A stretch of DNA of 64,000 nucleotides from assembly GCA_903889905.1 (NCBI GenBank), contig CAISZI010000005.1, forward strand, positions 9,376 to 73,375, in the 5' to 3' direction. Positions 6,112 to 8,052 of this stretch are shown here, in pieces. The position numbers were made by a program, and so were the translations under genes. The stretch is from Candidatus Wirthbacteria bacterium. GTDB taxonomy: Bacteria > Patescibacteriota > CG2-30-54-11. Position 1 is the first letter of the stretch; every line of letters starts with the position of its first letter. The notes beneath the pieces are model-generated. The model saw nothing but the letters and a program-made list of their open reading frames with translations, was not told where the DNA came from and searched no databases.

Positions 6112-8052
6112 TTACTTCTTCTTGGTGATGGACGCGGCTGAACCAATCATGTAAAAATCTTCGGGATCGTGGTCGACGTATTTGCTGTCAATAATGTCTT
6201 TGAGATCTTGTACCGATTCCTTGACGCCGACATATTCGCCGGGTTTGCCGGTAAACTGTTCGGCGGTGAAGAACGGTTGGGTGAGATAGTTGATGATTTG
6301 TTTGGCACGTTTGACGATCGATTTGTCTTTGTCACTAAGTTCGTCTTCACCCAGGATTGCGATCAGGTTGGCGAGCGAGGCGTAGTGCTTGAGCAGCATT
6401 TTGGCCGTGAGCACGGTCTGGTAGTGCACATCACCGACAATGGCGGGGGAAAGTACGGAAGAGCTGGAAGCAAGTACGTCCACAGAGGGGCGAAGCCCCT
6501 GTTCCGCCACTTTACGGGAAAGCACAATAGAAGAGGATAAGTGTGAAAAGATTGTTTGCACCGAGGGGTCAGAAAAGTCGTCAGCCGGTACGTAAATAGC
6601 CTGGACCGAGGTGATGGAACCGTTGGAGGTGGAAGCGATACGTTCCTGGACTTCGCCGACTTCAGTCAGCAGCGTGGGCTGGTAACCGGATTCTGAAGGG
6701 ATTTGGCCGATCAAGGCCGACACTTCGCAACCGGCCTGGATGTAACGGAAGATGTTGTCGGCAAAAAACAGCACATCCTTTTTCATGCGGTCGCGAAAGT
6801 ACTCGGCAATGGTCAGTCCTGTATAAATAACGCGCATGCGGTTGCCGGGGGATTCATTCATCTGGCCGAACACCATGGCAGCACGGTTGATCACGCCGGA
6901 TTCCTTGAGGTCATAATAAAGTTCGTTACCCTCACGCGTGCGTTCACCAATACCGGCAAAGATGCTGTAACCCTGATACTTTTCGGCAATGTTGTGCATC
7001 AGTTCGGTGATCAACACGGTTTTGCCTACACCGGCGCCGCCAAAGAAGCCGATTTTGCCACCCTTGATGAATGGGGTGAACAAGTCGAGCACTTTAACAC
7101 CCGTTTCAAGCTGTTCCACCTGGGTTTTGGCTTCAATATAGGAGGGTGGAGGTGTATAAATTGAGAGATAGGCGTCGGGAGTCTTGAGCTCAGCCGGATC
7201 CTGTTTTTCACCAAATACGTTAAACAGATGCGTCAGTGTCGCTTCACCCACGGGGCAGGTGATACTGTTATATGTGTCCTGCACTTTGTTGCCACGCGCG
7301 ATACCTTGGGTGGAACCGAGTCCAAGGCAACGGATGGAGCGGTCTTGCAAATATTCCAGCACTTCCATGGCAATGCGGTGTTTGCCGTTATCGACATAGA
7401 GAAGATTGCGGATATTGGGGATGTGGTCCTGAAAAATGACATCCACGATCACGCCATTCACCCGGATGACCGTACCGAAATCGTCGGCCTGGACTTTGAC
7501 TTCGTTACCCAGTTGATCGTGGGCAATCTGGTCGTTGACAGCTTGCTCATTGATTTCTGGCACAACCGGTGCGGGTGACTCCGCCAGTGGTACTGTCGCG
7601 ATCGTTGGTACGCTTGCCGGTATGGGTGCAGTCATCACGGGAGGAGGTAAGGCATCAGCTAAACCAAGCTCACTGGCCAGGGAGTCTTTGTTGATCGAAG
7701 TCGCGGAAGGTGTCAATGCAACTGGAGCTGCTGGTTGAATTGATAATGGCAAGGGTGCTTCCAGTTCGCGTTGAAAGACAGTCGTCGTATCTGGAGGAGT
7801 AACTGGCGTCGGCAATTCCACTTGCGACGCAGTGGGTTGCGCAGGATCCGCAAGCGGGGCCACTGTCTCTGTCATTGCTGCGACGGGAATTGCCGGCTCT
7901 GTCACTAGTGGAGATGCGTCTATAACAATGGGAGGCGCAGCGCTCGGCGCTATGCTTGCGGAAACGGCCGCACTGACTGGCGTTTCCACTACAGCGGTGA
8001 CAAGAGGTGGTGTTTCTACTTTGGGTTGTTTGTTTTTGCCGAAGTTGAACAT
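6112..8052 (-). CDS. atpD: F1 ATP synthase beta subunit with ~190-aa Pro/Ala/Val/Thr-rich N-terminal extension
   Basis: The C-terminal ~455 aa carry the GGAGVGKT Walker A, the DELSDKD motif, and conservation throughout. The ATG at 8050-8052 lies 1 nt after the atpG stop, so coupling supports the long form. Confidence 0.92.

Follow-up and report, generated by a model that had tools for sequence, protein, structure and literature searches.

In a genome of the Candidatus Wirthbacteria, the β subunit of the F-type ATPase, AtpD, carries about 190 residues ahead of its canonical fold. The gene, atpD, lies in the 64-kb stretch of DNA analysed here (the window; contig CAISZI010000005.1), where its open reading frame (ORF) occupies 6112..8052 on the minus strand and encodes 646 amino acids. 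We consider it likely, from sequence comparison together with structure modelling, that this N-terminal tail is real, translated and intrinsically disordered, that it is a trait of a Wirthbacteria-like clade, and that it sits on an F1 remodelled in other respects. We hold its function more tentatively. Possibly the tail contributes to contacts at the F1 crown or stator and acts as a spacer, brush or tether.

Architecture of AtpD

Behind its extension, AtpD is a canonical β subunit. The core (6112..7476, minus strand) matches PF02874, PF00006, PF22919 and TIGR01039 and comprises a β-barrel, a nucleotide-binding domain with GGAGVGKT and a C-terminal domain with DELSDKD; the Walker A motif and the DELSEED-type loop are both readable in the translation. 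Pfam places the three domains at residues 195-260, 318-531 and 539-626. Residues 193-645 match positions 3-458 of the 462-position NCBIfam profile TIGR01039, scoring 605.8 bits where the cut-off is 462.85. The barrel-opening motif begins at residue 192, and the extension is therefore residues 1-191, encoded by 7480..8052 (minus strand). It is acidic and predicted to be disordered, with 17% Pro, 16% Ala, 12% Val and 9% Thr, a net charge of -15 and three aromatic residues.

The start of atpD directly follows the end of atpG. The atpG stop (8054-8056) and the atpD ATG (8050-8052) are separated by 1 nt, and the resulting junction, TAA-C-ATG (8050..8056, minus strand), suggests translational coupling. 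The gene lies between atpG (8054..8944) and atpC (5854..6111), an order found also in its relatives. Two Met codons fall inside the extension, M60 at 7873-75 and M140 at 7633-35, and neither has a Shine-Dalgarno motif. A sequence-only reading of this DNA had described the region in much the same terms, as a low-complexity, Pro/Ala/Val/Thr-rich extension at 7480-8052 with the barrel starting near residue ~190, an ATG 1 nt past the atpG stop and internal Met codons that lack Shine-Dalgarno motifs. Pfam, NCBIfam and the barrel motif agree with its boundaries, the composition count with its description of the residues, and the DNA itself with what it said of the junction and the two codons.

Translation of the extension

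Sequence comparison across relatives indicates that the extension is very probably translated from the ATG abutting the atpG stop. Protein and contig searches yielded six relatives (L001, L081, L082, L083, L085 and L086), which with the window make seven distinct lineages. In all seven, the frame is open from 1-40 nt past the γ stop as far as the barrel, with its first ATG invariably at that upstream edge (9-40 nt past the γ stop in the relatives). No internal start of the window atpD is conserved across them. We asked how often such frames stay open in dinucleotide-preserving shuffles, 2000 per lineage. The longest tails stayed open in 2 shuffles (window, about 190 residues, counted as 192 in this comparison) and 1 shuffle (L001, 235 residues). 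The others did so in 26 (L081, 139 residues), 99 (L082, 112 residues), 170 (L085, 98 residues), 304 (L083, 55 residues) and 312 (L086, 52 residues). The tails cannot be aligned with one another, so the seven tests are close to independent trials.

Amino-acid usage reveals a constraint on the tail frame beyond merely staying open. Summed over the seven tails and set against shuffles of the same DNA, the translated frame contains 12 aromatic and Cys residues where 66 are expected (z = -7.4), 37 basic residues where 154 are expected (z = -11) and 104 acidic residues where 48 are expected (z = +9). Pro, Ala, Thr and Ser are enriched (z = +9.6). The other five frames of the tail DNA resemble shuffles in composition. 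Within the window, the extension frame is the only one of six without a stop and has the best codon-usage score, the other five containing 3-11 stops. Two antisense ORFs (7535..7738 and 7832..8068, plus strand) were rejected as genes, having far worse codon usage and looking like the mirror ORFs that Ala/Pro-rich coding sequence typically produces. Inside the extension we found neither a promoter-like nor a terminator-like site, and 7400..8100 contains no tandem repeat.

Predicted disorder and turnover of the tail

The tail is, as modelled, an intrinsically disordered and acidic region that evolves fast in sequence and length with its bulk properties kept. In an AlphaFold2 model of AtpD built on a 30-sequence alignment, residues 1-166 have a predicted local distance difference test score (pLDDT) below 50 and are coil without secondary structure; the core is modelled well, with the barrel from residue 192. 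This is the disorder check that the sequence-only reading had proposed, and another of its proposals, comparison with related AtpD proteins, gave tails of 52-235 residues in all seven lineages. In every lineage the tail is rich in Pro, Ala, Thr, Ser and Val, carries net negative charge, and has hardly any aromatic, Cys or basic residues. The sequences themselves have diverged beyond recognition: the best E-value in all-versus-all BLASTP of the tails is 0.013, which amounts to no detectable similarity, while the cores are 57-80% identical. Pfam returned no match to the tail alone even at E = 10.

Only the last 10-15 residues ahead of the barrel have a pattern common to the relatives. This pre-barrel segment, residues 181-192 (7477..7512, minus strand), reads [EK]VK[VIFY][QR]A[DE]..G in the upstream sequences of the seven lineages and in an alignment. 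Just before it, DSSP assignment of the AlphaFold2 model gives a low-confidence helix at residues 169-180 (7513..7548, minus strand; pLDDT about 50-56). A signal peptide or targeting presequence was considered and set aside: by eye, stretches in the seven N-termini are broken by acidic residues and share no pattern.

One relative offers a glimpse of how such tails may lengthen. The L085 tail (about 2194..2490) contains a perfect (Pro-Gln)11 run. Such a run points to replication slippage as one way in which tails grow.

Distribution and annotation

Among the genomes compared, the tail is confined to the clade. The comparison set comprised 79 other species retrieved by the same query, including Bacillota, several groups of the candidate phyla radiation (Patescibacteria), Chloroflexota and others. 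Upstream of the barrel, the most distant in-frame start in these species is a median of 3 codons away (90th percentile, 13), against the 191 residues that precede the barrel in the window, and no comparable tail was found in any of them. Two upstream frames in the set were longer, 103 codons in L023 and 67 in L059; both have an ordinary composition, unlike that of a disordered region, and normal starts at the barrel, and we regard them as chance read-through. The sequence-only reading had called the extension unusual for a core bioenergetic enzyme, and its absence from the 79 species bears this out. Long β subunits among the best 120 database matches likewise come only from clade members. A further candidate, P0006 (542 residues), owes its length to an internal duplication and was discarded as a tailed β.

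Public annotations under-report the extension, because gene callers disagree on the atpD start. Among named genomes, Candidatus Wirthbacteria CG2_30_54_11 (L001) comes closest, with 68% identity over the core. Its β gene (6806..8878) is publicly called as a 514-residue protein (P0003) from an internal Met; the ORF is open for 690 residues from just past atpG. Our search found no literature on the ATP synthase of Wirthbacteria.

The ATPase operon

AtpD belongs to an operon that is unusual in several respects. On the minus strand the genes encode, in order, a b-like protein, an NHL-hairpin protein, δ, α, γ, β, ε and a zinc-ribbon membrane protein, and this order is conserved in L001 and L082. 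The operon appears, from its sequence, to begin with the b-like gene, which is preceded by a promoter-like site at 14311..14283 (minus strand). The α and β subunits score above their NCBIfam equivalog cut-offs, and γ, δ and ε fall below theirs. The divergent γ, AtpG (296 residues, 8054..8944, minus strand), matches PF00231 at E = 4.8e-37 and reaches 94 of the 194 bits of its equivalog cut-off. The δ/OSCP-like AtpH (210 residues, 10650..11282, minus strand) matches Pfam OSCP at E = 9e-12 over profile positions 16-169 of 172. AtpC, or ε (85 residues, 5854..6111, minus strand), matches PF02823 over residues 7-83 and NCBIfam positions 1-77 of 130; it consists of the β-sandwich only, without the regulatory C-terminal helices. 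Directly after ε, a conserved gene (5382..5852, minus strand) encodes a protein in which an N-terminal zinc ribbon (Pfam) is followed by one transmembrane helix and then by a domain of about 90 residues. Homologues occupy the same position in L082 (8100..8582) and L081 (2476..2808), and by this conserved placement the gene is probably an additional operon member.

The α subunit has lost the helix that docks δ. In canonical F-type enzymes, an N-terminal helix of α of about 21 residues docks δ/OSCP. The window α, AtpA (570 residues, 8941..10653, minus strand), begins directly at its β-barrel: AGGAG stands ahead of the ATG (10653), and the match to the atpA profile starts only at profile position 23. 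The helix is absent from all four clade loci that include the α start (window, L001, L082 and L083), whereas in all 73 of the other species compared α extends by 17 or more residues at the N-terminus (median 21). Sequence gives no support to the idea that the helix has moved to the pre-barrel segment of β: with a hidden Markov model (HMM) built from the 73 species, shuffled decoys outscored the actual tails.

At its other end, α carries a tail of its own. About 85 residues (8944..9198, minus strand) begin with a Lys-rich block and end rich in Pro and Ala; across lineages this C-terminal tail runs to 52-129 residues with a Lys-rich block. A basic-aromatic, KKG[ML]FGxGKK-like motif recurs in four lineages, as KKGMFGGGKK, KKGLFSKFKK, KKSLFGFGKK and GRFFWNRLKKK. 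The N-terminus of the window β, MFNFGKNK, resembles this motif; the resemblance is not conserved in relatives.

A triple-length b-like protein appears to open the operon. The 485-residue product of 12786..14243 (minus strand) gives weak matches, below cut-off, to ATP-synt_B of Pfam (9e-5) and to the subunit B profile of NCBIfam (2.8e-4), and is a putative stalk protein. A single transmembrane helix at its N-terminus leads into a long helical region, and the C-terminus is a tail rich in Pro, Ala and Thr (12789..13019). The whole protein is about three times the normal length, and its homologues are similarly long (517 residues in L001, 436 in L082), with a Pro/Ala/Thr/Ser-rich tail. The helical region also has weak apolipoprotein, FliH and DivIVA-like matches.

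The only c-like element of the operon is a hairpin fused to a propeller. Between the b-like gene and δ, 11283..12776 (minus strand) encodes a protein of 497 residues, which combines a Sec-type signal peptide, an NHL β-propeller (Pfam NHL, E = 1.2e-38) and a C-terminal hairpin of two transmembrane helices (about 11286..11483). Homologues in L001 (1871..3394) and L082 (1434..2939) bring the family to 497-507 residues. An HMM built from 60 canonical c subunits matches this hairpin and nothing else (E = 1e-4 in the window, 5e-4 in L001 and 1e-5 in L082), and hhalign pairs it with the F-type c subunit at a probability of 96.3% and E = 1.6e-9. These profile comparisons make the hairpin a homologue of the F-type c subunit that lacks the ion-binding carboxylate: the Glu/Asp column holds Met in the window, Leu in L001 and Met in L082, and the cytoplasmic R-N-P loop is kept. 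A phmmer search with the hairpin against 1.84 billion representatives returned only the protein itself and a spurious eukaryotic CUB-repeat protein. No a subunit (atpB) was found in the window or in the loci of the relatives L001 and L081-L086, using an HMM from 49 species and a scan for the motif R-[LF]-x-[GA]-N, which contains the conserved Arg.

Alternative explanations

Several observations weigh against a translated tail that is specific to this ATPase. Neither here nor in most relatives does a Shine-Dalgarno motif precede the β ATG. Initiation therefore presumably depends on coupling to the atpG stop, joined by A-rich leaders in the relatives. GC content at third codon positions is 0.47 in the tail against 0.61 in the core, and the codon-usage score of the tail is only about neutral. 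The helix predicted ahead of the barrel has low confidence, and the HMM of the canonical α helix finds no match in the pre-barrel segment of β. No conserved motif lies inside the tail proper, which leaves a specific binding function without sequence support. Finally, a histidine kinase in the window (15839..17839, plus strand) ends in a Pro/Ala/Val-rich tail of 185 residues (482-666), and GrpE (1657..2262, plus strand) starts with a similar one of 59 (residues 1-59). These proteins are unrelated to the ATPase, and the β tail could therefore reflect a genome-wide habit rather than an adaptation of this enzyme.

The missing Shine-Dalgarno motif would fit a mis-called start, with β beginning at an internal or near-cognate codon by the barrel and 7480..8052 forming an untranslated atpG-atpD spacer. 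The gene caller did choose an internal Met in the L001 homologue, and a GGAG, the sole one close to any internal start, lies upstream of GTG164. We nevertheless judge this reading highly improbable. The GGAG is 15 nt from GTG164, too long a spacing, and in L081 and L082 the 55 codons ahead of the barrel contain no in-frame ATG, GTG or TTG. Untranslated spacers of 160-700 nt would not remain free of stops in seven lineages, where the shuffle probabilities run from 0.0005 to 0.16, nor would they acquire an amino-acid bias specific to one frame, and 7480..8052 contains no promoter-like site. A true start near residue ~180, which the sequence-only reading had named as what would overturn it, thus finds no support in internal starts, open frames, protein-level composition or promoter-like sites. 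A frameshift or chimera that joins an unrelated upstream ORF to atpD is less credible still, and we all but dismiss it. The window β and DnaK have no exact record in the contig index; the same architecture, however, recurs in independent assemblies from JGI, ENA, NCBI and Logan, and the ORF start exactly abuts the γ stop.

If the tail is translated, it need not be useful. A neutral by-product is a serious rival, though on balance a rather unlikely one: an upstream start would have been captured, low-complexity sequence, of a kind frequent in this genome, would have grown at a permissive terminus, and selection would only keep the frame open and the tail harmless. Lengths of 52-235 residues with no conserved sequence are in keeping with this, as are the (PQ)11 run of L085, typical of slippage, and the similar Pro/Ala/Val-rich tails on the histidine kinase, GrpE, α and the b-like protein. 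Such tails cover 2.6% of residues in 60 ORFs. Three of the five tailed proteins belong to the ATPase operon, however, and the α helix has been lost at the very face of F1 that would bear the tail. None of the seven lineages has fewer than 52 residues, although a new start near the barrel would delete the tail, and the constraint on composition is very strong and uniform, of which harm avoidance could explain part.

At the opposite extreme, the tail could be a specific recruiting tether that binds a partner protein or a neighbouring complex, as modelled on Mycoplasma mobile G1-β. Precedents exist in the N-terminal extensions of 200-300 residues on F1-like β subunits (PMC3369863), which have a structural role (PMC11864180), and in the C-terminal extension of Acanthamoeba β, which contacts the peripheral stalk (PMC13632647). 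Electrostatic pairing is conceivable as well, because the β tail is acidic and the C-terminal tail of α has a Lys-rich block. We find this analogy improbable as an account of the window tail, which conserves neither a linear motif nor a folded domain. The window β also falls far below the MMOB1670 family cut-off, with the N-terminal 253 profile positions unmatched, and the Mycoplasma region is helical, not disordered.

Function and significance of the tail

The reading we prefer, a translated and disordered tail on a remodelled F1, suggests where the tail would act. The N-terminal barrel of β is part of the membrane-distal F1 crown, adjacent to δ and the tip of b, and each complex should therefore have three tails that leave F1 at the crown. 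The sequence-only reading had proposed just such a projection where δ and b dock; this follows from the established position of the barrel and gains weight because the α subunit here lacks its δ-docking helix. In this scheme the first 573 nt of atpD would encode the acidic, intrinsically disordered tail, starting at the ATG that abuts the atpG stop, and the tail would form part of an F-type ATPase in which α has lost its δ dock and α and the b-like protein bear predicted disordered tails as well. About 25 pre-barrel residues, the weak helix plus the EVKxxA[DE] segment, may contribute to a rebuilt contact between crown and stator. The other 165 or so could serve as a flexible acidic spacer, brush or tether, for which physical properties would matter and sequence would not.

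The operon also invites a bolder interpretation, which we regard as unlikely. It may encode an ATP-driven F-type machine rather than a proton or sodium ATP synthase. A catalytically intact F1 would turn or pull on a ring of carboxylate-less, c-like hairpins displaying extracellular NHL propellers, with no a subunit and with a stator rebuilt from helix-less α, the triple-length b-like protein and tailed β. The β tail of such an ion-uncoupled machine might be part of the new stator or tether; it might dock δ or b or, by analogy with Mycoplasma G1-β, link complexes or partners.

The catalytic core of F1 ranks with the most conserved protein architectures known, and lineage-specific additions to it have been informative before, in the mycobacterial α tail, the amoebozoan β tail and the Mycoplasma G1-β region. 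The window tail extends this theme of extensions on F1 core subunits. A deep-branching, uncultivated lineage would place about 190 disordered residues on every β, in an enzyme where the δ dock of α is lost and the only nearby c-like gene lacks the carboxylate. Interest is raised by these several coordinated departures within one operon, the most striking being the carboxylate-less hairpin fused to an NHL propeller and the α without a δ dock. Were the tail involved in attaching the stator or tethering partners, it would represent a third route to holding F1 in place; were the operon uncoupled from ion translocation, the concept of an F1-like X0 would reach beyond mycoplasmas.

Comparison with known systems

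The Type 2 F1-like ATPase of Mycoplasma offers the best precedent for the window tail, by analogy. Its β-type subunits carry N-terminal extensions of 200-300 residues (PMC3369863). In M. mobile the N-terminal region of G1-β, which hangs along the crown, both binds phosphoglycerate kinase and connects two ATPase units; the accompanying α lacks the H1 helix (PMC11864180). Both systems thus combine a β-type subunit, a lineage-specific extension before the crown barrel and an α without its N-terminal helix. The Type 2 ATPase is not a standard ion-coupled F1Fo, which may be a further likeness to the window system. The differences are as clear. The Mycoplasma region is a folded helical domain that binds phosphoglycerate kinase, whereas the window tail is predicted to be disordered, and the two share no homology. 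Type 2 clusters lack δ and b, whereas the window operon has δ-like and b-like proteins. Nor does the window β belong to any of the alternative families tried: it scores 417 bits against 850 for the gliding-motor family MMOB1670 (NF045858), matching only profile positions 254-688, 447 against 570 for the Type 3 family MSC_0618 (NF045934), and 540 against 752 for the alternate F1F0 N-ATPase (TIGR03305).

The NHL-hairpin protein has its own counterpart in mycoplasmas. 'Protein 5' in clusters of both Type 2 and Type 3 carries a signal peptide, a large domain and, at its C-terminus, a hairpin of two transmembrane helices with a short loop (PMC3369863; for Type 3, PMC12994834), the same topology as the NHL-hairpin protein. 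The Type 3 F1-like X0 (MIB-MIP) further resembles the window operon in its cluster of α-, β-, γ- and ε-like genes. It differs in that the window α and β pass the atpA and atpD cut-offs and fail those of MSC_0618/0619, and in that the window hairpin is detectably c-subunit-like and accompanied by δ-like and b-like proteins.

Extensions of core subunits elsewhere are more distant parallels. The mitochondrial β of Acanthamoeba has a 118-residue C-terminal extension of two helices that contacts the peripheral stalk and stabilises F1 (PMC13632647). As in the window, the amoebozoan extension is lineage-specific, sits on a core β and varies in length among relatives; unlike the window tail, which is N-terminal and predicted to be disordered, it is C-terminal, folded and found in eukaryotic mitochondria. 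The likeness to mycobacteria is a lineage-specific terminal extension on a bacterial F-ATPase core, and the window α is C-terminally tailed too. There, a C-terminal extension of α of about 35 residues restrains ATP hydrolysis and contacts γ. That extension differs from the β tail in subunit and terminus, in being short and in having a defined contact.

In composition, the window tail recalls the Pro/Ala-rich flexible linkers and 'entropic bristle' tails known in bacterial proteins, such as the linkers of 2-oxoacid dehydrogenase E2. It shares with them a Pro/Ala-rich make-up, predicted disorder and rapid turnover of length and sequence with bulk properties kept. Those linkers join folded domains, whereas the window tail would be a free N-terminus on the catalytic subunit of a rotary ATPase.

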